Of a stretch of 62,501 nt of DNA, positions 6,248 to 55,315 are shown piece after piece. Each line of letters begins with the position of its first letter. The stretch's first letter is position 1. Source of the DNA: Alphaproteobacteria bacterium (GTDB lineage Bacteria; Pseudomonadota; Alphaproteobacteria; Rickettsiales; UBA8987); NCBI GenBank assembly GCA_030429725.1, contig JAUIEX010000003.1:1-62501 (forward strand), written 5' to 3'. Position numbers and translations under genes: made by a program. The notes below the pieces were generated by a model that made no database searches, had not been told where the DNA came from, and was given only the letters and a program-made list of their open reading frames with translations.

Positions 6248-6279
6248 AGCCTATCAGGCATAGGTTAATAAAACTCTAA
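6248..6279 (-). promoter_or_regulatory. CtrA-type box plus -10 element
   Basis: TTAG-agtttta-TTAA-N11-TAGGCT on the minus strand; overlaps the Trm112 gene stop codon. Confidence 0.65.
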
Positions 6280-6479
6280 TCCTCCAGCGCTCTGGCTTCA
6301 CTTTCCAACATAATGGGAATCCCTTCCCGAATTGGAAAGGCCAGCTTGGCTTTCTCGCTGATCAGTTCCTGCGTTTTTTTGTCGTAGCGCAGCGTGCCAC
6401 GGCTGACCGGGCAGACCAGCATATTTAGCAGCGCCCTTGAAAGCTCCGGCGCGGTATCATTTTGCTTTTTTGTCATCAC
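6276..6479 (-). CDS. Trm112/YcaR family protein
   Basis: [14 protein letters not shown]...[18 protein letters not shown]. Confidence 0.92.
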
Positions 6480-6625
6480 TCTGTCCTTTCTAAAGCATTT
6501 TTAAAATTCGCTAGTACTAAGCGAAAACAGGCATCTTTGAGAACCGCACCGGAAAATACATATAAGTACTTGAGGAGCGGAAGCGCAGAAGATGCCTGTT
6601 TGCAGTCAGCGATCGTAGAATTTTA

Positions 6626-6826
6626 TCACCCACCGCCGATGAAATGCACAATTTCCACCTCATCCCCGGCGGCCAGCTGCGTGGTGGCATAGGCGATGCG
6701 CGGCACAATCTCAAAATTCCGCTCAATAGCAATTTTCCGCTCATCCAGCGCCAGCTTCTGTACCAAAGCGGCGACAGAAACCGCCCCTTCCAACGGGTAG
6801 TCCTCACCATTTAACTTAATCTGCAT
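6626..6826 (-). CDS. thiS: Sulfur carrier protein ThiS
   Basis: 66 aa, [13 protein letters not shown]-terminal [10 protein letters not shown]. Confidence 0.95.
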
Positions 6827-6859
6827 GACATCTCCTTGCGATCATCTATACTCTCTCTC

Positions 6860-7282
6860 ATGAAGATTCTAATCCTCAATGGCCCAAATCTCAACCTGCT
6901 TGGCACGCGGGAGCCGGAAATTTATGGTCACACCACGCTGGCGGATATTGAAGCGCGCTGCATGGCGCTGGGCGCGGAGCTGGGCGCGGAAATCACCTGC
7001 AGGCAAAGCAATGCGGAACATGCGCTGGTGGAGGAAATTCAGCAGGCGCGCGGTGCTTTTGATGCGATTATCATTAATGCGGCGGCCTATACCCACACTT
7101 CCGTGGCGATTCATGATGCGCTTAAAGCCAGTGGCTTACGGATTATGGAAGTCCATCTTTCCAACATCCATGCGCGGGAGGCCTTCCGCCACCATTCCCA
7201 CATTTCCCCCATCGCCGAAGGGGTAATTTGCGGGCTGGGCGTGATGGGGTATGAGGCCGCGATTCGCGCCCTGACAGCATAA
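6860..7282 (+). CDS. aroQ: Type II 3-dehydroquinate dehydratase
   Basis: [46 protein letters not shown]; start MKILIL at 6860. Confidence 0.96.
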
Positions 7283-7342
7283 ACACCGCCTTTCTTCCGG
7301 CGCTTTCCGGAAACTTCCCTTCCTCTTTGACGGCAGTGCTGT

Positions 7343-9064: not shown

Positions 9065-9084
9065 GCAACATCATTCTGTTAAAG

Positions 9085-9116
9085 GTAACGTATTGTTAAG
9101 TTCTCTGTGATAGGCT
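9085..9116 (+). promoter_or_regulatory. CtrA-type box plus -10 element
   Basis: GTAA-cgtattg-TTAA-N11-TAGGCT. Confidence 0.65.
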
Positions 9117-9122
9117 TAGGCC

Positions 9123-10664
9123 ATGGCTAGGCTAAAAACCAATGATGCTGCGGCAAAACAAAGCATGAAAACTGCGTTTGAAAATGCCATTTCTTTGCTT
9201 ACAACTGGTTCTGATTCTAACCTAACAGAGATATGGAACGTCATTGATCGGGCTTATAACCAGCCTACCCGCCATTTTCACCATAAAAAACATCGTGACA
9301 TGATGATGATGCCACTGGAACAGGAATATCAGAAGGCCAAAGCCGACGGTGAGACTTTGGTTGTGGGACAGATTAAACAACTACGCTCACAATCGAAGAT
9401 GAATGAAATAACTATGGATAGCCTGCTGGCCATTAATGGCGCGGTGCATGATGTGGTGTATACCCTGCCGGATAAAGGGCTGGGCGTGGCCAAGAACATG
9501 CTGAAAAACATCGTTCCGGCACCTAATGGCCAGTTCGTGTTGGCAAAAAACTTTAGCCCAACCACCGAACAGCGCATTATTCTGGATATTTTTCAACATG
9601 CCGGGCTGTATAATAAGAGTGAATCACTGAGCAATGAACTTATGAGCGCACTGGCCACCCTGCCAGCACTGGTGCAGGAGGGTGGTTTAAGCCACTCAAC
9701 CCTTGCACAATTAGCCGTGATGGTGGCCGGAACCGTGCCGTTTAAAGATCAAAGTCACATGCCAAATTTAAAGGCAGCGCTGAAAAAAGTAGCTGAAAAA
9801 AATAATCTTAATCTGGATGAAGATGCCATTGCCGACACTGTTCGCCTTGCCACCTATGCCGCCAATCGTGATGTGAGTGCACTGATTGCCACCAGGCCCG
9901 CGCAAAGCATTTATGGCAGCATGGAATTGCTGGCGGAACGTGTGCCGGAAGCAATAGATGGTAATATCAGCCCTGTAAAATTCATGCAGGAAATGCACCG
10001 CTCAGTTAGTGGCTTGCGGGAATATGTTGTACCAAATCTTGCCAATGTTGCACATGTTGATGGTGACGGCTTTCCAGAACCTGCGTTGAAGCAGAAGCTG
10101 GATGAACACGCTGACGCCAACATGAAAGTCAATCTTGGTTTTCATCACCTGCATGTGTTAAGCGACGCATTGGTGGCGGCTATCAGCCTGAAGGCAGACA
10201 TAAACGATTCACGCTACACGCTGATGGCAAACATCGCCGCGCCCGAAAAAACCAATAACGATGATCTACTCTTTGACATCATGCGGGATGTGGCAACCCG
10301 TCCGGAACTTGGCCAGTTGGTTCAAAAAGGCACGGAGCAAAATCCTTATGGCAGCTTTGCTTTTGCCGCTCACATGTTGAACGCGCTGCCGGATCAGCCC
10401 GCTTTAGAAGCACTGGTGGAAAATTCTGCCATCCAGAACTTCCTCAATAATCCTAATCAAACCAATCCCTACGCGGTGCTGAATTTTTTAGCCGAAAAAA
10501 TAGGTGCGGAGAAATTCAACGATCTGGTTGAAACCCTAGACGCTGCCAATGCTAAGCATGCATCCGATATCCGTAAGCAAAAAGAACCCACCGGAACCGG
10601 GCAGAAAGCAGCAGTCACTTCTTCACCTTCCACAAAGCCAAACAAAGGCACGGGAAAAACTTAG
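9123..10664 (+). CDS. Hypothetical protein with HD-phosphohydrolase-like motifs
   Basis: RHFHHKKH and AVHDVVY, then NELMSAL, GTVPFK, ANRDV. Confidence 0.6.
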   Translation: MARLKTNDAAAKQSMKTAFENAISLLTTGSDSNLTEIWNVIDRAYNQPTRHFHHKKHRDMMMMPLEQEYQKAKADGETLVVGQIKQLRSQSKMNEITMDSLLAINGAVHDVVYTLPDKGLGVAKNMLKNIVPAPNGQFVLAKNFSPTTEQRIILDIFQHAGLYNKSESLSNELMSALATLPALVQEGGLSHSTLAQLAVMVAGTVPFKDQSHMPNLKAALKKVAEKNNLNLDEDAIADTVRLATYAANRDVSALIATRPAQSIYGSMELLAERVPEAIDGNISPVKFMQEMHRSVSGLREYVVPNLANVAHVDGDGFPEPALKQKLDEHADANMKVNLGFHHLHVLSDALVAAISLKADINDSRYTLMANIAAPEKTNNDDLLFDIMRDVATRPELGQLVQKGTEQNPYGSFAFAAHMLNALPDQPALEALVENSAIQNFLNNPNQTNPYAVLNFLAEKIGAEKFNDLVETLDAANAKHASDIRKQKEPTGTGQKAAVTSSPSTKPNKGTGKT

Positions 10665-11845
10665 GCCGAGGCCGAAGATAGTGAACTGGGCGGTACGGCG
10701 TTCAGCTGATCCATCAAGGCATCGGCATCCGGATGATCTTCTTTGGCCTTCACGGCATTAATGAAATTCCGTGCCTTTTCCGGCTGATGGTTGGCCAGTG
10801 CCGCATCCGCCTGCACCAGCTGTGTTTCCACATGTACCGGCGCCTGCGCCACCAGCCCCTTAACCAGCTTCTGCTGCTGTTTTTCATCCAGCGCCAGTAA
10901 CGTCACCATCTTTCTATAAAGCGAATATTCCGGCGCCAGCCGCCAGAGATTTTTGAGGGTGGCTTTCGCCGCGTGGCTTTGCCCCATGCCGGCTTGCAAT
11001 GTCATCAACATCACTGCCGCCTCCACATTGCGCGGGGCTTCTTTCTGCGCTTTCTGCGCATGGCTCAACGCAATCTGATTAGGGTTTTTCCCGCCGTTTG
11101 ATGCCTTATCGGCCAGCGCCAGATGCGCCTTCACCCGCCATTTTCGTACCATATCCGCGGAAAGCTGGCGTGCCCCGAAAAAGCGGCCGGCATCATGCTT
11201 CAGCACATCCATCACCGCGTCCCAATCCTGCATTTTTTCATAGCTTTCCAGCAGAGCGATGGTGGCTTCGGCCGTGTTATGGGTGCTGTAACGTTCCTCG
11301 GCATATTCCACCATGGCCTGCGTATCGCCAATCTGGCGGGATTGGTGATAAAGCCCGGTCAAGGCCAGCGGCTTGGTAACCTCATACGCACTTAGTTGCT
11401 GATAATGTGCCAATGCCTCACGCTTATCCCCGGAAAGCTCCGCCGCACGCGCGGACACAATATGTGCCAGCGGCCTTAGTTCCTCCAGCTTCTTTGCGCT
11501 GGCCTGCAAGCGGCTGGAGAGACGGTCTGCGGAAGAAATATCCTTCTCCGCCAATGCACATAAAGATTGCGCCACCAAGGTGATGGATTGTCTGGCGTGT
11601 TTCAGTGCGCGTTTATCCCGCATGCGCGAAGGAATACGCAGCACTCCAAAAACCAGCTCCAGCAGCAGAAACAGCACAATAAACCCAAGTGCCAGCACCA
11701 CCAAGGCCGCCGCCAGCTTCAACTCAATATGCCAGTCGGCAAGGTCAAACCCAACCCAGCCACTTTGATGCGAGAGCCATGATCCCACAAATGCCGCCGC
11801 CACCAGCAGCGCTAAAGTGAATAAAAGTGAGAGAAAACGTTTCAT
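10661..11845 (-). CDS. hemY: HemY-like membrane-anchored TPR protein
   Basis: Two N-terminal TM segments (WLSHQSGWV), helical repeats, adjacent to a COG4223/HemX-like gene as usual in alphaproteobacteria. Confidence 0.65.
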   Translation of the reverse strand: MKRFLSLLFTLALLVAAAFVGSWLSHQSGWVGFDLADWHIELKLAAALVVLALGFIVLFLLLELVFGVLRIPSRMRDKRALKHARQSITLVAQSLCALAEKDISSADRLSSRLQASAKKLEELRPLAHIVSARAAELSGDKREALAHYQQLSAYEVTKPLALTGLYHQSRQIGDTQAMVEYAEERYSTHNTAEATIALLESYEKMQDWDAVMDVLKHDAGRFFGARQLSADMVRKWRVKAHLALADKASNGGKNPNQIALSHAQKAQKEAPRNVEAAVMLMTLQAGMGQSHAAKATLKNLWRLAPEYSLYRKMVTLLALDEKQQQKLVKGLVAQAPVHVETQLVQADAALANHQPEKARNFINAVKAKEDHPDADALMDQLNAVPPSSLSSASA

Positions 11846-12951: not shown

Positions 12952-13013
12952 ACCCTCAACTCTTAGCCGAGCTTATTACCCCACGCAACCATCATTGACC
13001 TTCACCCTGCAGG

Positions 13014-14492
13014 CTATAGCCCCACATTCAGCGTCACTTGCTGATCACCCCGCAGAATAACAACCTGCAACGGCGTTTGGTGAGGCGGGAGAGCGGCGGC
13101 CAGTGTTTCCAGCTCCTCACTCTCTTTCACCGCATGGTTGTTGATGGCCAGAATCACATCCCCTTCTTTAAGAAAGCGCATGGCCAGCCCTTTTTCCAGC
13201 GCCAATACCACCACACCCTGCGTGCGCTCATGCCCCAGCTCTTCGGCCAAAGCGGGGGATAAATTTGCCACCACCGCACCATCCAGCACATGCTGCCCCT
13301 TCAAATGCCGTATGTCACGCGGGGGGTATTCCGCCGCCGGTTCCGTAACCAACGTGACGCTGCGCGGCGTGCCATTGCGAAGAAAATCCATCTTCACCGG
13401 GCGGTTGAGCAGGGTGGTTGCCATGCGGAATTTCAGTGATTGTTCATCCCGCACCGGATGGCCATCCACCGCCACCAGCACATCCCCGCGCTGCAGCCCG
13501 GCTTTCTCGGCGGAGCTTTTCGGGTAAATATCCTGCACCAACACCCCGCTGATGCGTTTCAGGCCCATGGATTCTGCCAGTTCCCGCGTCATATTCTGCG
13601 TGGCCGCGCCAAGCCACGGGCGGATGATCCGCAAAGTGCCATCGGCACGTTTCACCGCATTGCCCTTTTGATAACCCGCCACAATCACCCGCGCCATGAT
13701 GGCCGGCGTGGCAAAGCCAATGCCGTTACTGCCGCCGCCGCGTGTGAAAATGGCCGTGTTAACGCCCACCAGCTCGCCACGCATATTAATCAACGCACCG
13801 CCGGAATTGCCGGGATTGATGGCGGCGTCCGTCTGGATAAAAAATTCATAATCCGCAATACCAACGGAGCTTCGCGCCAGCGCCGAAACAATGCCGCTGG
13901 TGACGGTTTGCCCCACGCCAAACGGATTACCAATCGCCAGCACAATATCCCCCACCTGCAGATCATCCTGCTGCGTCATGGGGATATAGGGCAATTCCCC
14001 GTCATATTCTGCCAGATCCATCTGCAATAAGGCCAGATCCGTCTTTTCATCGGCCAGCACCAATGTGGCCGCCTGCTCCTGATCGTCCGAAAGCACGATG
14101 CGCACCGCGTCACTGCCTTTGACCACATGCAGATTGGTCAGCACTAACCCGTCCGGGCTGATAATCACCCCGCTGCCGAGCGAGTTGACCACGCGCTCCC
14201 GCTGGCGGAGCAAGCCCTGACTTTGCCCGAAAAACCCATCCAGCAGGGATGACCCACCGAAAAAGCGGTTAAAGATGGGGTCGGAAAGAAAAGGCGAGGT
14301 TTTAACCTGCACCTTCTTGCTGGTGTAAATATTGACCACGGCCGGCGCCGTGCGCTGCACCAGCGGCGCGTAGGAAAGCATAACCTGCGGCCGGCTTTCC
14401 GGCACAACACGCTGCTGCGCTGCCGCAGAAAATGCCAGCAATGCCACGGCTACTGTTAATAGATAATTAAGTTTCAACCTATAAAATCTCAT
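13014..14492 (-). CDS. htrA: Do/DegQ-family periplasmic serine protease with two PDZ domains
   Basis: Signal peptide, SLGSGVII, TNLHVV, TDLALL, IQTDAAINPGNSGGAL. Confidence 0.95.
   Translation of the reverse strand: MRFYRLKLNYLLTVAVALLAFSAAAQQRVVPESRPQVMLSYAPLVQRTAPAVVNIYTSKKVQVKTSPFLSDPIFNRFFGGSSLLDGFFGQSQGLLRQRERVVNSLGSGVIISPDGLVLTNLHVVKGSDAVRIVLSDDQEQAATLVLADEKTDLALLQMDLAEYDGELPYIPMTQQDDLQVGDIVLAIGNPFGVGQTVTSGIVSALARSSVGIADYEFFIQTDAAINPGNSGGALINMRGELVGVNTAIFTRGGGSNGIGFATPAIMARVIVAGYQKGNAVKRADGTLRIIRPWLGAATQNMTRELAESMGLKRISGVLVQDIYPKSSAEKAGLQRGDVLVAVDGHPVRDEQSLKFRMATTLLNRPVKMDFLRNGTPRSVTLVTEPAAEYPPRDIRHLKGQHVLDGAVVANLSPALAEELGHERTQGVVVLALEKGLAMRFLKEGDVILAINNHAVKESEELETLAAALPPHQTPLQVVILRGDQQVTLNVGL
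14456..14487 (+). promoter_or_regulatory. CtrA-type box plus -10 element
   Basis: Perfect TTAA-tagataa-TTAA-N11-TAAAAT; GAGGAG RBS before ATG 14511. Confidence 0.75.
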
Positions 14493-14510
14493 AAGAAGAG
14501 GAGTAGCTGA

Positions 14511-15425
14511 ATGTTGCGTGTTGGTAAAGACTCTGGAAAAGAAAACCGATCCTATGGCAGATTTGAAATTATTGTTGATAATAATGCTGTGGAAAAACCA
14601 TTTTCTTTTTTCTACGGTAATGGGAGTAGCTCCGCAATATCACCTTCGGTGGCTGTTGCAAACTTAAGAGATGCCTTAGAAAAATTACCGGAAAGCTATC
14701 AAATTATGCTTAATGAAACGGATCTGAAAAGATTTCGTATAACGGCACCCTCTCGTACTTCGGGTTATTCCAATACTCTGGACAGAGAAATTGGATTTTC
14801 CATTGAAACATTAAAAACGGATAATACGGCCAATCAGCAATTTCTGCAGGCCACTATTCTGGAGGAAGTTCGGCATTATCTGGCGCATCATTTTGATGGC
14901 TTTGATAACTGGAAAGAATGGATGAAAGCGGCAAAGAAGGAGCTTGAAGCCATTACCACGAATATGAATGGTGATGCTTATCGGCTTTTACAGGATTCTA
15001 TTTCATTTCGTACCAATGCCGCAGGCAGTCATAAAATTTCGATTGATCAGCAAAGAGAGGTGCTTAAAGAAGAAATTCAGAATATGTTTTCTCCAGAAGA
15101 TTACTCTACGGGAATTTTTAAACAACTGAATAAGCTTATGGGTGTTCTCACCATTGCTAAATTCAAGTTACAAAATCGATTCAATAAGGTTGAGGCGATG
15201 GAGCTACTTGTCGATATTTTGGCAGTGAGAGATTATCTTGAGGAAAATGGGGCAAACGAGCCTGATCAGGTTATGATGCAAGCATTTCCAAATACATGGC
15301 GGATGGCTAAAATTTTTGAAGGCATGATTGAACTGGAAGCAAGCCAGGTTAAAGAACGTGGTTTAAAACATCACAGCCGAATAAATCACGGCGGAGAACC
15401 CGGGACTTCATTACCGGGTTTTTAA
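14511..15425 (+). CDS. Orphan hypothetical protein with EExxH zincin-like motif
   Basis: 304 aa AT-rich ORF, strong RBS, ILEEVRHYLAH. Confidence 0.7.
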   Translation: MLRVGKDSGKENRSYGRFEIIVDNNAVEKPFSFFYGNGSSSAISPSVAVANLRDALEKLPESYQIMLNETDLKRFRITAPSRTSGYSNTLDREIGFSIETLKTDNTANQQFLQATILEEVRHYLAHHFDGFDNWKEWMKAAKKELEAITTNMNGDAYRLLQDSISFRTNAAGSHKISIDQQREVLKEEIQNMFSPEDYSTGIFKQLNKLMGVLTIAKFKLQNRFNKVEAMELLVDILAVRDYLEENGANEPDQVMMQAFPNTWRMAKIFEGMIELEASQVKERGLKHHSRINHGGEPGTSLPGF

Positions 15426-27300: not shown

Positions 27301-27564
27301 TTATTCCGCGCAACTGCCAAAGCTGGAGCTGGCCAGCATGGGGCTATAGGCTAAAACGGCCTGATGCATTGCATCCTGAGAAATACGTTCCGGCCGGTGC
27401 GTTAGAAGCTGGCGGCTGCCGGATAAGCCCACAATTAATGTGCTGTCGCTCTCTTCAGCCACGATGGTGTCAGAATCATGATGATAGACGCGGCGCGCTT
27501 CCGTTGCGCGGGCGCGAATGGAATTTTCGTGGCTGGTGAGTGCTTCTTCAATGGGAACGAACAT
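27301..27564 (-). CDS. Small orphan protein, 87 aa
   Basis: GGAGG RBS 5 nt before the ATG and a perfect CtrA-type promoter upstream. Confidence 0.65.
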   Translation of the reverse strand: MFVPIEEALTSHENSIRARATEARRVYHHDSDTIVAEESDSTLIVGLSGSRQLLTHRPERISQDAMHQAVLAYSPMLASSSFGSCAE

Positions 27565-27603: not shown

Positions 27604-27636
27604 ATGATACGACAGGAAGATTAAAGAAACGTTAAC
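27604..27636 (-). promoter_or_regulatory. CtrA-type box plus -10 element
   Basis: TTAA-cgtttct-TTAA-N11-TATCAT on the minus strand; the plus strand reads the full TTAA-N7-TTAAC. Confidence 0.78.
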
Positions 27637-34222: not shown

Positions 34223-34224
34223 CC

Positions 34225-34976: not shown

Positions 34977-36560
34977 TCACCCACCCAGCTGCTGTTTGGC
35001 GGCGCGTTCTTTCATTGCGGCCACGCGCTCTTCCGGGCTTTGCACGGCGGAAACCTTCTCCCCCGTGGTTTGGGAAAGCCCGGTGCTAACGGAGCTGCCC
35101 ATTTGTGCCGCCGCAGCGTGGATGGCATCCATATTCTCCATTTTCTGCGCGGACTGGCTGGCCTGTGCCATGGAGGCTTTGGCCTTGCTGACAGTGCTGG
35201 TTTCCTGCGCTTCTTTCATTTCTTTAAGCTGCTCCGCACGGTCTTTCTGGGCTTTTTTCAGATCGCTTTGCGTATCCAGACGTTCCAGTGTGCTTTTCAG
35301 TTTAGTTGAACGCTGCTGCACTTCCTGTTTTTTAACAACCGTCGTATCCTTCTTCGGGGCTTCCGGCGTTTGCTCCGCCTCCTCCATGCTGACTCCGGCC
35401 ACGCCCTCATTGGCGTCATCGGTCAGCTTGCGGCGCTCCAGCCCCACCCCAACAAATTTCGCCGCGCGTTTCATCAGCCGGTTCAAAAAGCGTGAAACGG
35501 GCGATTCCTGAATTTCCGTGGCGTTATATTTACTGGTTTTGGGCGTGATCTGCTCCTGCCGGATGGTTTGTTTTCCGGCGGCAGCCTGTTTGGATGGTTG
35601 CGGTTTTTGTTGTTCCTGCTGCTTATCCCGCTGGCGCTTCTCCTGATCCTGCCGCGTAACATTCTGCGCAGGTGTCTCTTTCTGGCGCTGTTGGGCGGCC
35701 TGCGCACGCTGCATCGTTTCCCGCGCGCGCAATGTGCGCTCCGCCTGCATTAAACGTGCCATATCACTCATATAATCCAGCCGGATCAAATCTTTCACCA
35801 GCCTTTTGCTCTGCTCCTGAGCCTGCTCCTGCCCCTTAACGGGCACGGCCACATAAAGCTGATTGCCGCGCTGGCTGAATTCGGCATTGGCAGCATTTTC
35901 CTCACCCAGTAATTCTTCCCCGTGGGGCTGCAGCGCGCCGTGCGCATCGCTGCCGGATTGCCGCAGCTTCGCCCCCAGATTCAGCATCGCCGCCTTGGCA
36001 ATCAACCCCGTGAACAGCGATTTCAGCTTATGCTGCCCCAGCGGCTGGCGGGCGGTTTCCACGCCGGATGCATCCAGTGCGACGGTTTGTAATGTCTCTA
36101 TATCCAGCCTTGTGCCTTCATCCAGCTGCATCAGCTCGGCAATGGCAATTTCTTCCTCATCTTTCAGCATCACCCAGGCGCGACGCAGGGCGGAAAGCGC
36201 GTGCAATTCCTGCAGCAAAGCCAGCAGCTCCTGCGGAGTCAGCACTTCATCCAGCGTTTCAAATTCCCCGGCTTCCAGCGCGTCTGCGTCCTCGGCCACG
36301 GTCACATCGCCCAGGTCATTCACCGCCACCTGCGATTCCTGATCCAGCCCTAATAGCTGCGCCAGCAGCTTCTGCAGATCCTCCCGGCTCATGCCCAGCT
36401 CGGAAAGCACCGCCTCAATCCGCTCCGTCACCGTGGATTGTTCCGCCTGCGAATCTAAACTGCGCAGCCGCTCATTCACATCTTCCAGCAGGCCGTTAAA
36501 GGGCAGCGCGGCAATAGCACCGGCAGGGTTACTTGCAGGGTTGGTGGGTGGCATGGTCAT
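34977..36560 (-). CDS. Orphan coiled-coil, Gln/Lys-rich protein, 527 aa
   Basis: Long ORF 3 nt downstream of the 661-aa orphan (probable operon). Confidence 0.72.
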   Translation of the reverse strand: MTMPPTNPASNPAGAIAALPFNGLLEDVNERLRSLDSQAEQSTVTERIEAVLSELGMSREDLQKLLAQLLGLDQESQVAVNDLGDVTVAEDADALEAGEFETLDEVLTPQELLALLQELHALSALRRAWVMLKDEEEIAIAELMQLDEGTRLDIETLQTVALDASGVETARQPLGQHKLKSLFTGLIAKAAMLNLGAKLRQSGSDAHGALQPHGEELLGEENAANAEFSQRGNQLYVAVPVKGQEQAQEQSKRLVKDLIRLDYMSDMARLMQAERTLRARETMQRAQAAQQRQKETPAQNVTRQDQEKRQRDKQQEQQKPQPSKQAAAGKQTIRQEQITPKTSKYNATEIQESPVSRFLNRLMKRAAKFVGVGLERRKLTDDANEGVAGVSMEEAEQTPEAPKKDTTVVKKQEVQQRSTKLKSTLERLDTQSDLKKAQKDRAEQLKEMKEAQETSTVSKAKASMAQASQSAQKMENMDAIHAAAAQMGSSVSTGLSQTTGEKVSAVQSPEERVAAMKERAAKQQLGG

Positions 36561-36563
36561 CCT

Positions 36564-38549
36564 TTATCGTAAATTTATTTCCTGATCCGCACCAGCCTCT
36601 TTTTCCGCTTCCGCCGCCACAGCATAACCCTCTTTCATTATAGGTTCCGGCTTCCGCCGCTTTTCCATCCTGGCGGCAGCATTTTCTGAGGCTGCATCCA
36701 TGTGACTACGTAATCCATCCGATGCTTGCGGGCGCGGTGCTTTCATTTCTCCTTCAACGGCTTTATCGCGGCCCGCTAGGACTTCTCCCAGCGGGTTGCC
36801 GGCACCTTTGGGCTTGGTGTGTGTCGCCGGCACCTGATTGGCACTATCAGCATCAGCGGGGAGCGGCTCCGGCGGCAAATTGGCGGAAGCAGGTTCCGGT
36901 GCTGTTTTAGGCGGCGCAGATGGGGGCGCGTCCGGCTGGCTATCGGAAAATTTCGGGTCATCCCCCGTCACGGGCGGTGGCGTTGGTTTTGTTGATGCAA
37001 CGGGTGGCGGCGCAACCTTATCACCCTCCGGCCGGCGCGCCAGTGGTTTTGTTTTCGCTGCGGCTTCCGGTTCTTTCGGCGCTTTAGGTTCAGGCGGCTT
37101 TTCCTTCGCCACAGGGGATGGCGCGGGTTCCGGGGCTTTATCCCCGCCATTCGTTACCAACTCCCCTTTGTCATTCACGCTAACCTTCGAAAGCTCCTTT
37201 TGCTCCGATTGTGCGGCGGCGGATGACAGCTTTGGTTCCGGTGGGTTTTTCTTATCCTTGCCCGACATCACTTTTCCATCTTGATTCACGCTAACCTTCG
37301 AAAGCTCCGGCTTGTTGGCAGATGTGGTTTCAGTCGTGTCACCCTTTCTTATATCCGCTGCCGGCGCATCCTGCGGTGTTTCGGCGGGCTTTCCATTCGC
37401 AGGCTTCGCTGTATCCGCCGCCTTCTGATCCGGCGCCTCCTTGCTGCCATCACCGCTCTTTGCCGCAGCGGCACCTGCTGCGGCGGTGATGGCCGGGTCA
37501 ATCCCCCGTTTCATTGCATCTTTTTTCGAACCTTCTTGATTTAGCGTCTGCTGATCGACAAATTTCTGCTTTTCACTGGCCAAAGCCTGCTGCGGAGAGC
37601 AATAAGACCCTTCCGGCAATTCTTCCTGCATTTCCGGCCTCAGGGCATATTCCGGAAAAAATTCTGAAAATTTGGTGGAAATGCTCTTGGCATCGTTTAA
37701 GTTCATGACCGGATCACCGCGCCCAAACAGACCGGATTCGTAAACAAGACCATTAGCATCCAGTTCCCACTCACTGTGCCCCAGCATATTTTTCTTCAGC
37801 TTGCTGTCCAGTATTGCACCAAATTCATAGCCAAGCTGCGCCACAAGAAAGGTAATCTGCTTGCCGCTTAAGCCCTGCGCGCTCAGCTGCTTATGCAGAT
37901 GGCCGGACAAGGCACGGCTGAATTCCATATGCGCACCGCGATAATTTTTCAGCGTTTGCGCCGCCCGTGGACTGCCATTTTCCTGCAACTGGCCAACCGC
38001 TTCCTGCGCCAGACCGTTAAGATAGAAATATTCCACACTGGTTTTGTTGACGTCATTAATTTCCGTATAGCGCCCTGAAATCGCGCCCTGATAAAGCCCC
38101 TTGGCGAAAAGAAAGGGCAGCACCAGCAACAGATTATCCGATTCAATCAGCCCATCTTTCGGGTCAAAGAAAATATACTCCAGCGCGCCGGCGGAAAATT
38201 CCCGTATCTGATAAATGGAAGGGGTAATGGCTTTATCGCCAATTTTAAGGCGCAATTCCTGAAGGTCATCAATCAGCTTCTGCGTGTCGTTAACAAACAC
38301 ATCCCAGCTGAAAAACTCGCCCCTTTCGGCATAGCCAAGGCTGCGAATATCCAGCAAACGGTCATAAACATTCCGGCTTTTGCTTGCCGCCCCCACCGTG
38401 CGCACACCGTTCGGATTGCCGGCATAACGATGCAGGCGGCGCTCCGACTGTGCGGCGGCCCTGTATTCATCCCATTCGGCAACGGGATCAAGATCATCGG
38501 CATTAAAGCCGATGGTTGAACCGATCCCTGTGTTGCGATCATCCGCCAT
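36564..38549 (-). CDS. Orphan protein, 661 aa, with Pro/Ala/Lys-rich disordered C-terminal half
   Basis: Long ORF with GGAG RBS, CtrA-type promoter and an internal 25-bp duplication. Confidence 0.75.
   Translation of the reverse strand: MADDRNTGIGSTIGFNADDLDPVAEWDEYRAAAQSERRLHRYAGNPNGVRTVGAASKSRNVYDRLLDIRSLGYAERGEFFSWDVFVNDTQKLIDDLQELRLKIGDKAITPSIYQIREFSAGALEYIFFDPKDGLIESDNLLLVLPFLFAKGLYQGAISGRYTEINDVNKTSVEYFYLNGLAQEAVGQLQENGSPRAAQTLKNYRGAHMEFSRALSGHLHKQLSAQGLSGKQITFLVAQLGYEFGAILDSKLKKNMLGHSEWELDANGLVYESGLFGRGDPVMNLNDAKSISTKFSEFFPEYALRPEMQEELPEGSYCSPQQALASEKQKFVDQQTLNQEGSKKDAMKRGIDPAITAAAGAAAAKSGDGSKEAPDQKAADTAKPANGKPAETPQDAPAADIRKGDTTETTSANKPELSKVSVNQDGKVMSGKDKKNPPEPKLSSAAAQSEQKELSKVSVNDKGELVTNGGDKAPEPAPSPVAKEKPPEPKAPKEPEAAAKTKPLARRPEGDKVAPPPVASTKPTPPPVTGDDPKFSDSQPDAPPSAPPKTAPEPASANLPPEPLPADADSANQVPATHTKPKGAGNPLGEVLAGRDKAVEGEMKAPRPQASDGLRSHMDAASENAAARMEKRRKPEPIMKEGYAVAAEAEKEAGADQEINLR
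37173..37308. repeat. Exact 25-bp direct repeat pair (ELSKVSVN) inside the orphan ORF
   Basis: ATTCACGCTAACCTTCGAAAGCTCC at 37173-37197 and 37284-37308. Confidence 0.9.
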
Positions 38550-38565: not shown

Positions 38566-38597
38566 AGTATAGCATCAGGGGCTTAACAAAGGGTTAA
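38566..38597 (-). promoter_or_regulatory. CtrA-type box plus -10 element
   Basis: Perfect TTAA-ccctttg-TTAA-N11-TATACT. Confidence 0.8.
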
Positions 38598-47078: not shown

Positions 47079-48638
<1,560 letters not shown>

Positions 48639-48656
48639 CTTTAAGGCTGATTGCCC

Positions 48657-49058: not shown

Positions 49059-49088
49059 CTCCCTCTTTTTCTGTGTTAGTCTGGCATA

Positions 49089-49742: not shown

Positions 49743-49828
49743 CCATCGCGCAGATCGTCTTTGATCCTCTGAAGGATGATGATAGAACGCCGAAAGTGAT
49801 GCAGGAAACGGCGTGTCCGGTCACCTGA

Positions 49829-50899
49829 TTAAAGCGATTGGGCGATGCCGTTCTTCACGCCCTTGGCGCTTACCTCTTCCACCTGCACCGCCAGATGCTT
49901 GCCCGCCGCGCCCAGATGCCCCTTCATCATGTGAATGCCCTTACAGGTGATAGAGAGCGGGTCATTGGGCTGGTCGTTCATCATCAATGTGCTGCCCACT
50001 TCAAACGAGGCCAGATCTTTCAGCGTAATCCTTTTTCTCGAAAGCACGGCGCTGACGGAAACCTTGCTGCTGCTGACTTCCTTACTCAGATGCTCCTCCC
50101 AGGACATATCCGTGCCGCCGAAAGATTCCCCGGCAAACATCTGCACCAGCAATTCTTTGACCGGCTCCAGCGTGGCATAAGGGAACATAATTTCCGCCTT
50201 GCCGCCGCGCTCTTCCATCTCAATACGCAGGGAAATCAGAATCACCGGGTTGGCCGGGCGGGTGATGGTGGCAAAGCGCGGGTTGGTTTCCAGCCGCTCC
50301 AGCCGGAAGGTGGCCGGGGTTAACGGGTTAAAGGCACCGCTCATTTCCTCCAGCATCTGCTTGCCCAGCGAGCGGATCATATCCTGCTCAATGGTGGTGA
50401 AAGGCCGCCCTTCCACGCGGGTGGCGCGCTTTAATTTGCCCCCGCCCAGCAGAATATCCACCATGGAATAGGTCAGGGCGCTGTCAATCGTAATCAGCCC
50501 GTAATTTTCCCATTCCACACATTGGAAAATGGCCATCAGTGCCGGCAGCGGCACGGAATTGAGATAATCCTCAAACCGCATCGAGGTGATGGATTCAATA
50601 TTCACTTCCACATTTTCGTTGGTAAAATTCCGCAACGTGGTGGAAAGTGTGCGCACATAGCGGTCAAACACCACCTCCAGCATGGGCAGGCGTTCATAAT
50701 TTTCCTGGCTGCGCTCCAGCAGCGCCTGAATACCCGTGGTGGCCATGGAAGCGGAGGAATCAAAGCCAAGCAGGCTGTCAATCTCATCCTGACTCAGCGT
50801 TTCAGCATCATCGCCGGCCTCCATCATGGCGGCCATCTGCTCTTCTTCGCTTAAGCCTTCCTCGGTCTTTTCAGCCTCTTTAAGTTCTTCCTCCGCCAC
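49829..50899 (-). CDS. fliM: Flagellar motor switch protein FliM
   Basis: LSQDEIDSLL, ERLPMLEVVFDR, ETNPRFATI, C-terminal SpoA domain. Confidence 0.95.
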   Translation of the reverse strand: MAEEELKEAEKTEEGLSEEEQMAAMMEAGDDAETLSQDEIDSLLGFDSSASMATTGIQALLERSQENYERLPMLEVVFDRYVRTLSTTLRNFTNENVEVNIESITSMRFEDYLNSVPLPALMAIFQCVEWENYGLITIDSALTYSMVDILLGGGKLKRATRVEGRPFTTIEQDMIRSLGKQMLEEMSGAFNPLTPATFRLERLETNPRFATITRPANPVILISLRIEMEERGGKAEIMFPYATLEPVKELLVQMFAGESFGGTDMSWEEHLSKEVSSSKVSVSAVLSRKRITLKDLASFEVGSTLMMNDQPNDPLSITCKGIHMMKGHLGAAGKHLAVQVEEVSAKGVKNGIAQSL

Positions 50900-50932
50900 A
50901 ATCCGTGCCCTTTGTCCGAAATTGAACCCGCG

Positions 50933-51475
50933 CTATTGAACCACAATCTCACGGAACAGAATATCATTCACTTCCACATCGCTGCTTTCAAGAATCTTGT
51001 TAATCCGCAACAATAATTCCTCCCGCAAGCGGTGCAGCCCGGAAGAACCCTGAATATCCGTGGAGCGCAGCTCCCGCAGGTAAATCTGGAACGCATCACG
51101 AATACGCGGCAAGTTGCTTTCCACCGCCGATTGCGTTTTCAGGTTCGGCAGCTCCAGCGTCACCTTCATTTTCAGGAAGCTGATTTTCTTGCCCGGCTCG
51201 TTCAGATTGGTGAGAAATTCATCCAGTTCATAAAATACGGTTTTGGGCGCCAGCAGCGGGTCAATATCGCCGTCCGCATGGTCGCTGGGTGCCAGCACGC
51301 CGGAAATCACCAGCCCGGCCGCAGCACCGCCCAGCACCACCACCAGCAAAACCACAATCAGCAGCAGCTTTTTCTTCGATTTTCCGCCGCCTTCACCCTC
51401 GGCACCCTCTTCGCCTTCCTCGCGCTCATCCACCTCTTTTTCGTCACGCCCGGTATTTTCTTCTTCATCCGCCAT
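50933..51475 (-). CDS. fliL: Flagellar basal body protein FliL
   Basis: Acidic N-terminus, single TM, LPRIRDAFQIYLRELR, ILFREIVVQ; start MADEEE at 51475. Confidence 0.93.
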   Translation of the reverse strand: MADEEENTGRDEKEVDEREEGEEGAEGEGGGKSKKKLLLIVVLLVVVLGGAAAGLVISGVLAPSDHADGDIDPLLAPKTVFYELDEFLTNLNEPGKKISFLKMKVTLELPNLKTQSAVESNLPRIRDAFQIYLRELRSTDIQGSSGLHRLREELLLRINKILESSDVEVNDILFREIVVQ

Positions 51476-51685
51476 GTAATCTGCTCCTGTTCGCGTCAGC
51501 GCCGTTATAAAAACCAGCCTACTCTTCCCCCCATGCAATTGCAATTCCAACCGCACCTTCGCACCGAACATCAGCGAGTTTTGCCGGTGATGCGGCAAAA
51601 ATAGCCGCTAACCCGGAAAGATCCTCCGGGATAGCACCACGGAGATTTTGCTTCATACCTCTGATATCTATGCCTAAATAAACTT

Positions 51686-51700
51686 TGGCACGCAAACTGC
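51686..51700 (+). promoter_or_regulatory. Sigma54 (-24/-12) promoter of flgF
   Basis: TGGCACGCAAACTGC with GG-N10-GC spacing, 40 nt before the flgF ATG. Confidence 0.75.
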
Positions 51701-51740
51701 TTCTTAAGCCCATAGAGAGAATAAGGAGCATGCTGCCATT

Positions 51741-52499
51741 ATGGAAGTATCAGGTTACATTGCATTATCCGGCCAGTTGGCGCTGATGCGCAATCTGGAC
51801 ACGGTTGCCACCAATGTCGCTAACGGTGATACCGCCGGCTACAAGGCCGGAAGGATGCTGTTTACCGATTATCTGGCCGATGCCGGGCGCAACCGTGACG
51901 TGGCCTATGCCAATGATGTGGCCACCTATGAAGATTATGCGCAAGGGCCGCTGAAAGTGACAGGAAGGCCGCTGGATGTTGCCATTCAGGGCGACGGTTT
52001 TTTTGAAGTGCTTTCTCCTAATGGCGTGCGCTTCACCCGCCTGGGCAGTTTTCAGGTCAGCCCGGACGGCACATTGATCACCGCTGAAGGCTATACGATT
52101 CAGGGCGAAGGCACCGGCACGGGCGAGCGTCCCATCACGCTGGGCGAGGGTGACACAGCCATTATCGTCACGAAAGACGGCACCATCCGCGCCCGCAGTG
52201 CCGCCGGTGGGCTGGAAGATCGTGGCCGGTTAAGTGTGGTTAATTTTGACGATCCTCAGCAGCTGGAAAAACTGGGCAACGGCTTCTTCACGGCCCCCAT
52301 AGCACCTAATCAGCTTTTGCCGGAAGAGGTCAGCATTGCGCAGGGCATGTTAGAGAAATCCAATGTCAATCCCACGCTGGAAATGACGCGCATGATTAAA
52401 ATTTCACGCTCGGTCACCACCCTTGCCAGTTTTCAGAATGACATGCATGAGCTGCAACGTCGCTCTATGTCCACTCTTTCACGGCAAGGAGGCCAGTAA
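51741..52499 (+). CDS. flgF: Flagellar basal-body rod protein FlgF
   Basis: ATNVANGDTAGYK, TGRPLDVAIQGDGFF, QGMLEKSNVN. Confidence 0.92.
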   Translation: MEVSGYIALSGQLALMRNLDTVATNVANGDTAGYKAGRMLFTDYLADAGRNRDVAYANDVATYEDYAQGPLKVTGRPLDVAIQGDGFFEVLSPNGVRFTRLGSFQVSPDGTLITAEGYTIQGEGTGTGERPITLGEGDTAIIVTKDGTIRARSAAGGLEDRGRLSVVNFDDPQQLEKLGNGFFTAPIAPNQLLPEEVSIAQGMLEKSNVNPTLEMTRMIKISRSVTTLASFQNDMHELQRRSMSTLSRQGGQ

Positions 52500-52539
52500 T
52501 GGCTTTTCGCCACCTTAATTCATCAACAAGGAGTCACCC

Positions 52540-53322
52540 ATGCGCTCATTAGATATCGCCGCCACCGGCATGCTGGCACAGCAGCTGAATGTGGATGTTA
52601 TTGCCAACAACATCGCTAATCTTAGCACCACGGCCTATAAGCGTCAGGTTGCTGAATTCCATGACCTGCTTTATCAAAGCCAGTTGCGCGTCGGCTCTTC
52701 CTCCAGCTCGGACGGCACGATTGTGCCCACCGGTACGCAGGTGGGGCTTGGGGTAAAAACCGCCGGCATTTACCGCGTTAATCTTCAGGGCGCGATCCGG
52801 GAAACCGGCAACACTTTCGATCTGGCGATTAACGGCCCCGGCTATTTTCAGGTGAATCTGGCCGATGGCGAGGCCTATACCCGCGCCGGCGCGTTTCAGG
52901 TGAATCAGGACGGGGAGCTGGTAACCAGCGAAGGCTTTCAGGTTTCCCCCGGCATCACCGTTCCGCAGGGTGCGGTGGATGTGACCATCAACCAGAATGG
53001 TGAAGTGCTGGTGAAACTGGACGGCCAGACGGAGCTTTCCAATGTCGGGCAGATCGATCTGGTGACCTTCATCAATGAATCCGGGCTGGAAGCGGACGGC
53101 GAAAACCTCTTTTTAGAAACCGAGGCCTCCGGCGCTCCCATTGCCGGCTTTGCCGGGGATGATGGCTTTGGCAGCCTGCTGCAGCGTTTTCTGGAAGTAT
53201 CCAACGTTGATCAGGTAAAGGAATTGACGGAGCTGATCACCGCGCAGCGTGCCTATGAGCTGAATTCACGGGTCATCAGCACTGCCGATGAGATGCTCAG
53301 CGCACTCAGCAATCTAAGATAA
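52540..53322 (+). CDS. flgG: Flagellar basal-body rod protein FlgG
   Basis: MRSLDIAATGM, NIANLSTTAYK, FHDLLYQ, LEVSNV, AQRAYELNS. Confidence 0.96.
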   Translation: MRSLDIAATGMLAQQLNVDVIANNIANLSTTAYKRQVAEFHDLLYQSQLRVGSSSSSDGTIVPTGTQVGLGVKTAGIYRVNLQGAIRETGNTFDLAINGPGYFQVNLADGEAYTRAGAFQVNQDGELVTSEGFQVSPGITVPQGAVDVTINQNGEVLVKLDGQTELSNVGQIDLVTFINESGLEADGENLFLETEASGAPIAGFAGDDGFGSLLQRFLEVSNVDQVKELTELITAQRAYELNSRVISTADEMLSALSNLR

Positions 53323-53337
53323 CACTAAGGTAAGATA

Positions 53338-54291
53338 ATGACGAGAAAAGAGGAGAGGATCATGAGCAAAGAGACAACGTTTGCAGCCACGCTGCGCGGG
53401 CTGACAATCGCGCTGGCGGCGCTGGTGGTGTTGCTGCCCCTTTCCTCCTTCGCGTCCGATGGTTTTCCCGCACAGGAGCTGGAAACGCGCCTGAAAGAAG
53501 CGCTGGAAATCAAGCGGGAGGAAGCCGGCCAATTTGATCGCATCAATTTGGAAAATCTGGCCGTAAACACCAATGCCAACCGCCAGCCCATCACCCATAA
53601 CGGCACTTTGCGCCTGATGCGCGTCAACATCACCGGCGACGGACGATTTGAGGCCAATATCTGGTCGGAACCGCAGGAAACCATCTTCACCGCATCCGGC
53701 CGTTTTCAGGAAGTTATCGACGTGCCCATCCCTGTGCGCGATATCGCCCCCGGGGAAATCATTGCCGAGCATGATCTAAGCTGGCAATCCTACCCCAAAT
53801 CCCGCATCCGCCGCAGCCAAATCACGGATATGCGCGAATTGATCGGCAAGGAAGCCGCCCGCCGGATTCAGGAAGACAGGCTGATTTCCGCCCGCGATGT
53901 TCAGGCACCACGGCTGGTGATTAAAGGCCAGCAGGCCACCGTCACCTTCCGCCATCCTTACATGGAGCTTTCCACCACCGGGCAGGTGCTGGAAGATGGT
54001 GCCGCCGGTGATACGGTGCGCGTGCGCAACATTAACAGCAGCAGCGTGGTCACCGCCACGGTGATGGCGGACGGTAATCTGGTGATTCAATCTGCGGAAA
54101 GTGCCGGATCCAGCGCACCGGCCGCTATTCTGGCCGCACCCGCGTCGATCTCTCAGCCTAAAATTTCCACTGCCGAAGAGGCCGCACCCGCACCCATCAA
54201 GCCGGCAATTAACAAAGAGGCCTTCATTCATTCCATACCCGAAACATTACCTGCACGCTCATCTTCCAAACGCATAGGAGAAGACGCATGA
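53338..54291 (+). CDS. flgA: Flagellar P-ring formation chaperone FlgA
   Basis: SAF-like domain, GQVLEDGAAGDTVRVRNINS; position between flgG and flgH. Confidence 0.88.
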   Translation: MTRKEERIMSKETTFAATLRGLTIALAALVVLLPLSSFASDGFPAQELETRLKEALEIKREEAGQFDRINLENLAVNTNANRQPITHNGTLRLMRVNITGDGRFEANIWSEPQETIFTASGRFQEVIDVPIPVRDIAPGEIIAEHDLSWQSYPKSRIRRSQITDMRELIGKEAARRIQEDRLISARDVQAPRLVIKGQQATVTFRHPYMELSTTGQVLEDGAAGDTVRVRNINSSSVVTATVMADGNLVIQSAESAGSSAPAAILAAPASISQPKISTAEEAAPAPIKPAINKEAFIHSIPETLPARSSSKRIGEDA

Positions 54292-55055
54292 CCCTTCATT
54301 TCACTCACATACGATCCATCAGCCTCACACTCACCGCACTCTTGCTGGCCAGTGCCTGCACGCAGAATCAGGTTGATCGCCTGCGCAATTTAGGCGAAGT
54401 GCCGCCGATGAAAGAGGTGGAAAACCCCGAAGAGCTGCGTAAGCCCATGAGCTGGCCCACGCCGGCGCGGCGCATCAAGGCTTCCTATCCGGAAACCGCC
54501 GGCTCACTTTTTAACGCCAATACACGGGATTTCTTTGGCGACCGCCGGGCGCGGGAAGTGGGGGACATTCTTTTGGTCAGTATCAAAATTCAGGATAAGG
54601 CCGAGCTGGACAACAAAACCGAAAGCAAACGCAACGGGCAGGATAGCCTGGGCGCACCGGCCATATTCGGGCTGGAAGGAAAATTGGCCAGCCTTGTTTC
54701 CGGGGAAACCCAGCCCTCCAGCCTGCTGGACATCACCGGCCAGACCAGCCACACCGGCGAGGGCGTGATTGAGCGTGAAGAGGTGATTGAAACCGAAGTG
54801 GCCGCCGTTGTTCGGCAGGTGCTGCCGAACGGCAATCTGGTGATTTACGGCAGTCAGGAAGTGCGTGTGAATCATGAAGTGCGCCAGGTCACCATTGAAG
54901 GGGTCGTCCGCACGCCGGATATCACCCCGGATAATAAAGTAGATTCAAGCCGCATTGCCGAGGCACGCATTTCTTACGGCGGCAAAGGTTTAATTTCTGA
55001 TGTCCAGCAGCCCCGCCTTGGCAGTCAGATCGTCGATATTCTGTCACCATTTTAG
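54288..55055 (+). CDS. flgH: Flagellar L-ring protein FlgH
   Basis: Lipobox LASAC, DRRAREVGDIL, VLPNGNLVI, RIAEARISYGGKG. Confidence 0.95.
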   Translation: MTLHFTHIRSISLTLTALLLASACTQNQVDRLRNLGEVPPMKEVENPEELRKPMSWPTPARRIKASYPETAGSLFNANTRDFFGDRRAREVGDILLVSIKIQDKAELDNKTESKRNGQDSLGAPAIFGLEGKLASLVSGETQPSSLLDITGQTSHTGEGVIEREEVIETEVAAVVRQVLPNGNLVIYGSQEVRVNHEVRQVTIEGVVRTPDITPDNKVDSSRIAEARISYGGKGLISDVQQPRLGSQIVDILSPF

Positions 55056-55205
55056 AGGAAATGGCTGATAGCAACAGTTTGGAAGTAAGTCCGGCAATCC
55101 TCTCTCCTTCTCTCTCTCAAGCCTGGCTTACTTCCTTCCCCATTTTGAATTGTTCCCGGGAAATCCTTCCGGAGTTGCCATAAACAACCACGGGTAAAGG
55201 CGTGG

Positions 55206-55258
55206 CGCTCTGCCCTACGCACCGTATAGAGCGGGCTCAGGGCTGCATCGGCCTCCTG
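55206..55258 (+). repeat. Partial intergenic copy of palindromic element family A
   Basis: GGGCTCAGGGCTG at 55233-55245 followed by catcggcctcctg, preceded by a GCTCT/AGAGC-closed hairpin. Confidence 0.55.
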
Positions 55259-55283
55259 AAAAATGAAGGAAATCACAGTCTTG

Positions 55284-55315
55284 TTAGGGATTTCTTAACC
55301 TCTTTGGCGCATACT
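55284..55315 (+). promoter_or_regulatory. CtrA-type box plus -10 element
   Basis: TTAG-ggatttc-TTAA-N11-CATACT. Confidence 0.65.

Follow-up and report, generated by a model that had tools for sequence, protein, structure and literature searches.

Promoter-defined effector regulons are known from plant pathogens, with their PIP and hrp boxes, and from Legionella and Coxiella, where Dot/Icm effectors are PmrA-dependent. To our knowledge, nothing comparable, a regulatory tag that marks effectors, has been reported for the rvh type IV secretion system (T4SS) of the Rickettsiales. A common duplication of virB4 and the form of the virB3-virB4-virB6 operon characterise that system, and domain searches identified no rvh effectors in free-living-like deep Rickettsiales (10.1101/2021.08.31.458344). 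A TTAA-N7-TTAA box whose first half-site is followed by a C, located at -35, is the experimentally defined full site of the regulator CtrA (PMC4287350, PMC6180460), and Caulobacter has 52 CtrA-activated start sites with the full motif, the 5' base of the box lying near -35, or at -39 in the case of ctrA P2 (PMC4287350). Among the Rickettsiales, 34-55 open reading frames (ORFs) of Wolbachia carry consensus CtrA sites, and the CtrA protein of Ehrlichia is tied to developmental stage and stress resistance (PMC4426382, PMC9791040). Earlier work has described CtrA sites and their position at -35, the existence of leaderless targets and, for the Rickettsiales, dozens of predicted targets. Here we analyse a 62,501-nucleotide (nt) stretch of DNA (the window) from contig JAUIEX010000003.1 of an alphaproteobacterial assembly placed in the Rickettsiales (GCA_030429725.1), which has six CtrA-type promoters upstream of mostly orphan genes, and the genome-wide promoter class to which these very probably belong.

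The source genome (G000), of which the window is contig C63, is an assembly of 1.74 Mb in 74 contigs, 98% complete, with a GC content of 50.9% overall, about 55% in the window and 46% in intergenic DNA. Gene calling with an ORF heuristic based on codon usage gave 1,495 genes and a coding fraction of 88%. Proteomes were compared with that of G009, a complete genome of the same family (1.60 Mb, 37% GC), and the clade was sampled with 30 relatives from the same family and order. Gene order is scrambled between G000 and G009, and no positional orthologues were usable in this comparison of two genomes. The window encodes flagellar and chemotaxis genes, and the genome as read from its sequence matches the picture of environmental flagellated Rickettsiales, with an rvh system and no identifiable effectors (10.1101/2021.08.31.458344); we call it 'Rickettsiales-like' because of its duplicated virB4, its virB3-virB4-virB6xN operon and its DUF2671 gene. 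The ATP/ADP (TLC) translocase is missing from G000, which rules out an energy-parasite lifestyle, and is present in only 2 of 31 relatives.

Promoter geometry and the genes behind it

A preliminary description of the window had proposed that six orphan loci share one promoter architecture, in which a TTAA-N7-TTAA box is followed after 11 nt by a -10 hexamer. In the intergenic DNA of G000, TTAA-Nx-TTAA occurs 54 times at N7 and 6-20 times at each other spacing between 0 and 15. Among the 65 perfect boxes located at most 150 nt upstream of a gene (oriented boxes), 27 have TANNNT exactly 11 nt past the box, every other offset being represented by at most four (0-4). Taken as a whole, the (7,11) geometry is matched in upstream regions 27, 30 and 87 times with zero, one and two mismatches, respectively, while 24 control geometries in the same regions average about 0.5, 7.5 and 80 matches. 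Judging from these counts, perfect sites are essentially all real, as are about three-quarters of the one-mismatch sites; those with two mismatches call for additional support. The genome-wide enrichment on which the proposal hinged is borne out, N7 and N11 being unique spacings. A 38-nt scoring matrix, trained only on sites outside the window and controlled with the reversed matrix, found 54 matches versus 1 at a threshold of at least 16 bits, 65 versus 6 at 12 bits or more and 98 versus 29 at 8 bits or more across the genome. In all, about 59 sites stand out from the background. Several of the strong ones lie before long ORFs missed by the gene caller (516, 391, 386 and 232 amino acids (aa)), and we therefore put the regulon at about 60 units.

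The class consensus is TTAAC(c/g)nnTTnTTAA-nn-tTTtt-n-TGn-TAnACT-G, with a T-rich spacer and an extended -10. Positions that had not been fixed beforehand carry information (C5, T9-10, the T-rich stretch 18-22, TG at 24-25, AC at 30-31 and G33), and the information content drops to about zero outside positions -2 to +34. This limit, together with the finding that the regulon products are singletons, apart from TPS exoproteins, ruled out an explanation by repeats or mobile elements. No TTGACA-like sequence is present at the -35 position, as would be expected of an activator-dependent promoter. The distances between hexamer and start codon are bimodal: 13 of 50 regulon genes, including those at 9123 and 55323, have their ATG 5-9 nt (mostly 6-7) past the hexamer, and the remaining genes have leaders of 16-53 nt with ribosome sites of the GGAG/AGGA type. 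Since the 5' base of the box lies 26 nt upstream of the -10 hexamer, the box would, by this geometry, begin at -38/-39 in leaderless transcripts. On this evidence we are confident that the six sites of the window belong to one rigid, activator-dependent promoter class of the CtrA type.

Some perfect boxes stand in other surroundings. On contigs C65, C67, C73, C38 and C49, several TTAA-N7-TTAA boxes without a -10 at N11 are adjoined by (GGGAAGA)n and (GAGA)n repeats (for example 'CAAGTTTTT-TTAA...', then GAGAGAGAG and GGTAAGAT), which gives them the appearance of a small, repeated, box-bearing element present in several copies.

Direct reading of the window sequence recovered all six box sequences of the preliminary description, each as written and on the strand given (Table 1), and the distances between box end and start codon, described as 23-56 nt, are 47, 23, 40, 56, 33 and 24 nt. 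Three boxes are perfect and three have one altered base in the first half-site; for perfect boxes, where about 0.3 had been expected, dinucleotide shuffles give 0.33, and 0 of 100 shuffles reach three. The TGATAGGCT noted as common to the first two sites is indeed present; it is no motif in its own right and corresponds to the extended -10 of the class consensus (TGn + TAnnCT). The 38-nt matrix finds exactly six matches of at least 8 bits in the window, and they are these six sites. An 11-position composite with at most one mismatch also has six matches, versus 0.21 expected; five coincide with sites already described, and the remaining one (14682-14713(-)) is internal to the AT-rich gene 14511-15425, scores below 8 bits and is probably due to chance. 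In the genome-wide list of 87 two-mismatch matches, the site at 55284 ranks second. On the strength of matrix scores and of the false-positive rates of the reversed matrix, the sites at 38597, 27635, 55284 and 9085 are very secure, that at 6279 is good and that at 14456 is the least secure. The latter, the weakest of the six, matches at all 11 core positions and has an atypical spacer; it lies inside the signal-peptide codons of a divergent gene for an HtrA/DegP-like protease (13014-14492(-)), whose start codon is just 18 nt away from that of the 304-aa gene. At promoter 1, the first half-site (TTAG) overlaps the TAG stop codon of a 67-aa Trm112-like gene (6276-6479(-), Trm112p Pfam match), and read-through from this gene into orphan 1 is possible.

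Table 1 Promoters of the window and the genes that they precede.
Feature	Position	Strand	Description
Promoter 1	6248-6279	-	TTAG-N7-TTAA-N11-TAGGCT; box 6279-6265; extended -10 TGATAGGCT; hexamer 6253-6248; 12.4 bits, one core mismatch
Orphan 1	5057-6217	-	386 aa, acidic, no Cys, no Pfam family; start codon 30 nt past hexamer
Promoter 2	9085-9116	+	GTAA-N7-TTAA-N11-TAGGCT; box 9085-9099; extended -10 TGATAGGCT; hexamer 9111-9116; 17.5 bits
Orphan 2	9123-10664	+	513 aa, predicted all-helical, basic Gly-rich tail; ATG 6 nt past hexamer
Promoter 3	14456-14487	+	TTAA-N7-TTAA-N11-TAAAAT; perfect box 14456-14470; hexamer 14482-14487; 8.2 bits
Gene 3	14511-15425	+	304 aa; 39.7% GC
Promoter 4	27604-27635	-	TTAA-N7-TTAA-N11-TATCAT; perfect box 27635-27621; hexamer 27609-27604; 26.4 bits
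Orphan 4	27301-27564	-	87 aa, no Pfam family; leader 39 nt; GGAGG Shine-Dalgarno 7 nt upstream of ATG
Promoter 5	38566-38597	-	TTAA-N7-TTAA-N11-TATACT; perfect box TTAACCCTTTGTTAA 38597-38583; TGc + TATACT 38571-38566; 26.8 bits
Two-gene orphan operon	34977-38549	-	661 aa (36564-38549) and 527 aa (34977-36560), 3-nt gap; behind promoter 5
Promoter 6	55284-55315	+	TTAG-N7-TTAA-N11-CATACT; box 55284-55298; hexamer 55310-55315, then G; 20.8 bits
Orphan 6	55323-56789	+	488 aa, highly charged (E/R/D-rich); ATG 7 nt past hexamer (leaderless type)

That all of these genes are orphans, as had been claimed, holds for five products and fails for the 304-aa product. This protein has 13 distant relatives, the members of a rare, uncharacterised family, and is therefore no orphan in the strict sense; its gene looks, from its composition, to have been horizontally acquired. 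The 513-, 488- and 386-aa products found only themselves among 5.8 billion proteins, the 661- and 527-aa products have neither a Pfam family nor a homologue, the former matching nothing in the 30 relatives, and no G009 homologue was found for the 386-, 513-, 87-, 661- and 488-aa products. For these orphans, no related locus turned up that could have served for footprinting. The position of the orphan 2 start codon fits a leaderless transcript. The C-terminal half of the 661-aa product is disordered and rich in Pro, Ala and Lys. Single-sequence AlphaFold2 (AF2) models were uninformative, with pLDDT values of 37.5 for the 513-aa protein and 40.5 for the N-terminal 335 aa of the 661-aa protein. 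A SprT-like assignment of the 304-aa product and a SesA assignment of the 488-aa product were both rejected, as their Pfam scores fall below the cut-off.

The preference of the promoter for orphan ORFs (ORFans) extends to the whole genome. In G000, 26 of 27 genes behind perfect promoters (96%) have no homologue in G009, versus 582 of 1,440 other genes (40%; Fisher p = 1.4e-9), and once one-mismatch sites are added, 48 of 55 genes have none (p = 4e-12). When the test was reversed, starting from the 75 perfect promoters of G009, 64 genes (85%) were without homologue, versus 35% (p = 5.6e-18), so that the suggested enrichment before ORFans relative to conserved genes is found in both genomes. No Pfam family could be assigned to 30 of the 36 regulon products tested (83%), the other six having a J domain, a sugar transferase, a TPS exoprotein, a DUF2671, a ClpS or an HD domain; among other window genes, 16 of 20 have a Pfam family, though most of these had been chosen for lacking a G009 homologue. 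Turnover of the regulon between the two genomes is almost complete, with a 93-aa DUF2671 protein as the sole conserved member. All 30 relatives carry the 32-nt pattern, most of them far above the reversed control (52 versus 1, 121 versus 13, 110 versus 7, 61 versus 3 and 54 versus 1), and there is no excess over that control in the very AT-rich relatives G007 (46 versus 45) and G028 (38 versus 38). The promoter class is a clade-wide trait.

Regulon products and type IV secretion

The explanation that we favour, and consider likely on the sequence evidence, is a CtrA-activated regulon in which a secretion machine is co-expressed with lineage-specific candidate substrates. A CtrA~P dimer would bind TTAAC-N6-TTAA; the box would begin some 38-39 nt ahead of the transcription start and stand in for the -35 hexamer, and RNA polymerase would be held by the extended -10 (TGnTAnACT) exactly 11 nt past the box. 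The resulting transcripts would either be leaderless, with the ATG 6-7 nt past the hexamer as at 9123 (6 nt) and 55323 (7 nt), or begin with a 16-53-nt leader that contains a Shine-Dalgarno sequence. At the stage of the cell cycle or of development at which CtrA is active, it would turn on the secretion machine and a set of private, fast-turning-over proteins together, many of which would probably be T4SS substrates, or surface or host-interaction factors. Both the position of the start site and the stage specificity are what we infer from the promoter geometry and the nature of the regulator.

The machine is an rvh-like operon, virB3-virB4-virB6x3 (virB6/TrbL genes), at C8:18539-25837. A CtrA-type promoter at C8:18539-18570 (TTAACCACTTTTTAG...TGGTAAACT), which was outside the training set and scores 24.3 bits, lies 17 nt upstream of virB3. 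In a survey of 22 genomes, the best matrix match in the 1.6 kb upstream of virB4 lay 20-100 nt upstream of virB3 with a score of at least 16 bits in G018, G023, G024 and G029, and as a weaker box, or a perfect one whose spacer is poor, in 4-5 further genomes, among them G022, G003, G004 and G011. The relatives that share the position of the site include other families, and this recurrence is far beyond chance, given that G000 has one match of at least 16 bits per about 64 kb. Of the 31 genomes, 29 have exactly two VirB4 paralogues, G022 has one and G017 three. A second link to the machine is the DUF2671 (PF10877) gene (93 aa, C65:30254-30599), which has a perfect promoter in G000 and, in G009, one with a single mismatch. 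The family, described as centred on Rickettsiales, was found in 28 of 31 relatives and in 0 of 14 control genomes; the R. typhi homologue is cREM-3/RT0206, which was recovered as an interactor of RvhD4 (10.1101/2023.02.26.530123).

As a class, the regulon products differ from the other proteins of G000. When 50 regulon proteins were compared with conserved genes and with other orphans of this genome, the regulon had a lower median isoelectric point (5.2 versus 6.0, p = 1e-7), less Cys (0.1% versus 0.9%, p = 3e-10), more disorder-type residues and a lower gene GC (0.486 versus 0.516). According to a hydropathy heuristic (not SignalP), 22% of regulon products have a transmembrane-like segment and 14% a hydrophobic N-terminus, versus 46% and 29%, respectively, of other G000 orphans, and direct reading found no hydrophobic N-terminus among the six window products; by these measures most regulon products are soluble and free of a signal peptide. 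Some patterns at the C-terminus emerged post hoc: the last 25 residues are more positive than the remainder of the protein (Wilcoxon p = 1e-5), and the last 12 are enriched in Gly (11.7% versus 6.3%, p = 2e-6) as well as in Pro and Ser. Likewise post hoc, a C-terminal Arg is present in 23% of 69 perfect-promoter products of G009 versus 4% (p = 4e-8) and, at borderline significance, in 16% versus 7% in G000 (p = 0.05); many G009 products terminate in ...SR, ...GR or ...GKGR, and the terminal Arg could be a C-terminal signal. In G009, acidity was replicated (p = 2.5e-7) and tail composition weakly so. Pfam searches of the 36 products tested revealed no eukaryote-like or toxin domains (ANK, LRR, patatin, Sec7).

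Co-regulation with the rvh operon, the absence of Sec signals, the composition of the proteins and the DUF2671 link raise the possibility that many regulon products are substrates of the co-regulated rvh T4SS, to which we give somewhat less than an even chance. The preliminary description had named secreted effectors and surface proteins as examples of what the set might be, and the tie to the secretion operon and the properties of the proteins lend the effector idea indirect support. A further step, about which we are more doubtful, would be to see the CtrA full-site promoter as a sequence-readable tag for rvh T4SS cargo, machine and lineage-private effectors being switched on jointly; new genes might then join the set by gaining the 32-nt promoter and a flexible, Gly/Arg-rich and often Arg-terminal tail.

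The strongest competitor, which we believe to be a serious minority possibility, retains CtrA as the regulator and holds that the products are intracellular or structural stage proteins (for storage, nucleoid, envelope or dormancy), or young genes of low function with an easily evolved strong promoter. It would account for the 83% of products without recognisable domain, for the five of six window products without G009 homologue and the three without detectable relative anywhere, for the almost complete turnover of the regulon within one family, for the failure of AF2 to yield a confident fold and for the several tail features unreplicated in G009, and the ClpS, HD-domain and J-domain proteins and the sugar transferase do have cytoplasmic or envelope functions. 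However, regulon ORFs are of considerable length, reaching 1,303 aa, their coding scores are normal and their starts are preceded by Shine-Dalgarno sequences or are of the leaderless type; acidity, few Cys and few hydrophobic segments set the class apart from the other orphans of G000, and the T4SS operon has the very same promoter.

The secretion regulon that we favour also has to contend with a number of observations that weigh against it. The evidence for T4SS substrates is confined to co-regulation and composition. The virB3 promoter was seen in only about 6-10 of 22 relatives and is not universal, and the DUF2671 promoter, present in only 4-5 of 28 genomes, was rejected as a conserved footprint; the authors of the cREM-3 study deem that protein 'likely not' an effector (10.1101/2023.02.26.530123). 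The RG/GR tail motif and Cys depletion were dropped as class markers, having found no replication in G009. Some members are clearly not T4SS cargo, namely two TPS-domain exoproteins, the sugar transferase, ClpS and lipoprotein-like ORFs. In the window, the score of site 14456 is just 8.2 bits and the site falls within the coding sequence of the adjacent gene, and no CtrA box was found upstream of four relatives of the 304-aa family, which are on short metagenome contigs. The gene set of G000 comes from a purpose-made ORF heuristic, and no RNA runs contain the window sequence, which is carried by only two DNA metagenomes, one of them labelled biofloc.

The two TPS-domain exoproteins, of the filamentous-haemagglutinin type, and a 918-aa protein are encoded at C10:3-2270, C66:45937-50628 and C5:216-2972 behind CtrA-type promoters, and an RTX-like GGAGKDD repeat was noticed by eye near the C-terminus of the 918-aa protein; because of these, the regulon has cargo of other secretion routes. 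Another member, a 1,296-aa protein at C29:14258-18148(-), contains the motifs TSHPTNP, VPLFED and GGGDALQRGGG, which by eye are reminiscent of PEP carboxylase.

Identity of the regulator

The factor that binds the boxes is probably CtrA itself. The presence of a ctrA gene, which the preliminary description had left to be confirmed, is now established: a tblastn search with the Caulobacter CtrA sequence found a sole CtrA-like gene at C38:84701-85393(-), whose product is 61% identical over its full length and scores 381.1 bits against the NCBIfam equivalog NF045991 (cut-off 350). The best named relatives of this protein are from Sphingomonadales (62-64%). Its recognition-helix segment, EPELKIIDVFICKLRKKL, is the same as that of Caulobacter. 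In the region upstream of ctrA (C38:85430-85560), TTAA repeats with N6, N7 and N8 spacing overlap and cluster, an arrangement that suggests a complex autoregulation like that at the Caulobacter ctrA P1/P2 promoters. The phosphorelay check, which covered ChpT, found a ChpT-type phosphotransferase (PF10090, 76.9 bits) at C3:29240-29611, and 29 of 31 relatives have one as well.

The motility genes of the window do not have this promoter. No CtrA-type box was found at the flagellar cluster fliM-fliL / flgF-flgG-flgA-flgH (49829-55055) or at cheA, and the matrix scan agrees with the preliminary description in finding none before fliL or cheA; about 40 nt upstream of flgF there is instead a sigma-54-type promoter, TGGCACGCAAACTGCT (GG-N10-GC), at 51686-51701(+). 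Both observations count against CtrA as the reader of the boxes, and no link between the promoter class and a motility programme was seen in the window flagellar genes. As fliLM, flgFGAH and cheA are the canonical targets in the window, the regulon is unlike a textbook CtrA regulon, and the flgF promoter would be compatible with a hierarchy like that of Caulobacter only provided that CtrA controls flagellar genes other than these.

It is conceivable, if improbable, that the promoter class is real and its reader is a second OmpR-type regulator or another activator that recognises a direct or inverted TTAA repeat. G000 does encode a second full-length OmpR-family regulator (C65:12593-13276, 30% identical to CtrA), and such a reader would explain why the textbook flagellar targets have no box. 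However, TTAA-N7-TTAA, its first half-site followed by C and the box placed at -35, is the defined CtrA full site (PMC4287350, PMC6180460), the CtrA of G000 exceeds the equivalog cut-off, and the clustered TTAA repeats upstream of ctrA are what autoregulation would lead one to expect.

That the six matches arose by chance in AT-rich intergenic DNA beside orphans is scarcely credible: the lower GC of orphans and their flanks, the intergenic GC of 46% and the control-level frequencies in G007 and G028 would suit it, but at control spacings these upstream regions yield about 0.5 perfect matches where 27 are found, the reversed matrix gives 1 where the matrix gives 54, unfixed positions are informative and the start-codon distances are bimodal and sensible, which effectively refutes chance for five sites and leaves it a weight approaching or reaching an even chance for site 14456.

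Comparison with known systems

In this clade, the promoter is so rigid that its sites can be recognised in the sequence with false positives of the order of a few per cent, and it is almost reserved for genus-private genes, a bias tested against the whole genome and found again in a second one. In the literature that we searched, we found neither the fixed N11/extended -10 geometry nor the near-exclusive use by lineage-private genes, shown here statistically for two genomes, nor the promoter at the rvh operon. A regulatory tag would make effector identity in deep Rickettsiales directly testable: if it is real, a matrix scan would list, genome by genome, the effectors of environmental flagellated Rickettsiales and perhaps those of pathogens. 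It would also offer a view of new genes being wired to an essential regulator.

The full-motif promoters of Caulobacter crescentus are alike in that TTAA-N7-TTAA is located near -38/-39 and replaces the -35, a position that here is predicted from sequence geometry. Some targets are leaderless there and would be so here, ctrA appears to regulate itself, and a relay of the CckA-ChpT-CtrA type is represented here by ctrA and ChpT-type genes. In contrast to Caulobacter, the spacing to the -10 is rigid (nearly always N11), the -10 is TGnTAnACT and not GCTANAWC, and the genes served are about 85-95% lineage-specific ORFans, not genes for flagella, pili, division or methylation. The CtrA regulons predicted, or verified in part, for Ehrlichia chaffeensis and Wolbachia resemble the present one in that reduced genomes keep CckA/CtrA and have dozens of genes with consensus sites; the targets reported there were mixed and mostly annotated, and no fixed promoter geometry, orphan bias or CtrA site at the rvh operon was described (PMC4426382, PMC9791040).

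With the rvh T4SS of Rickettsiales, G000 has in common the duplicated virB4, the virB3-virB4-virB6xN operon and a DUF2671 (cREM-3) homologue. The candidate substrates are similar to rvh effectors in not being conserved between families and in having no Sec signals, and differ from them in having no ankyrin, LRR or other eukaryote-like domains and in being candidates on sequence alone. The closest regulatory parallel may lie further afield, in the PIP/hrp and PmrA regulons, where one activator site likewise stands before many unrelated, fast-evolving secreted proteins and before genes of the machine, and can be used to predict effectors. Regulator and motif are different in those systems; here, the regulator would be an essential master regulator of the cell cycle.

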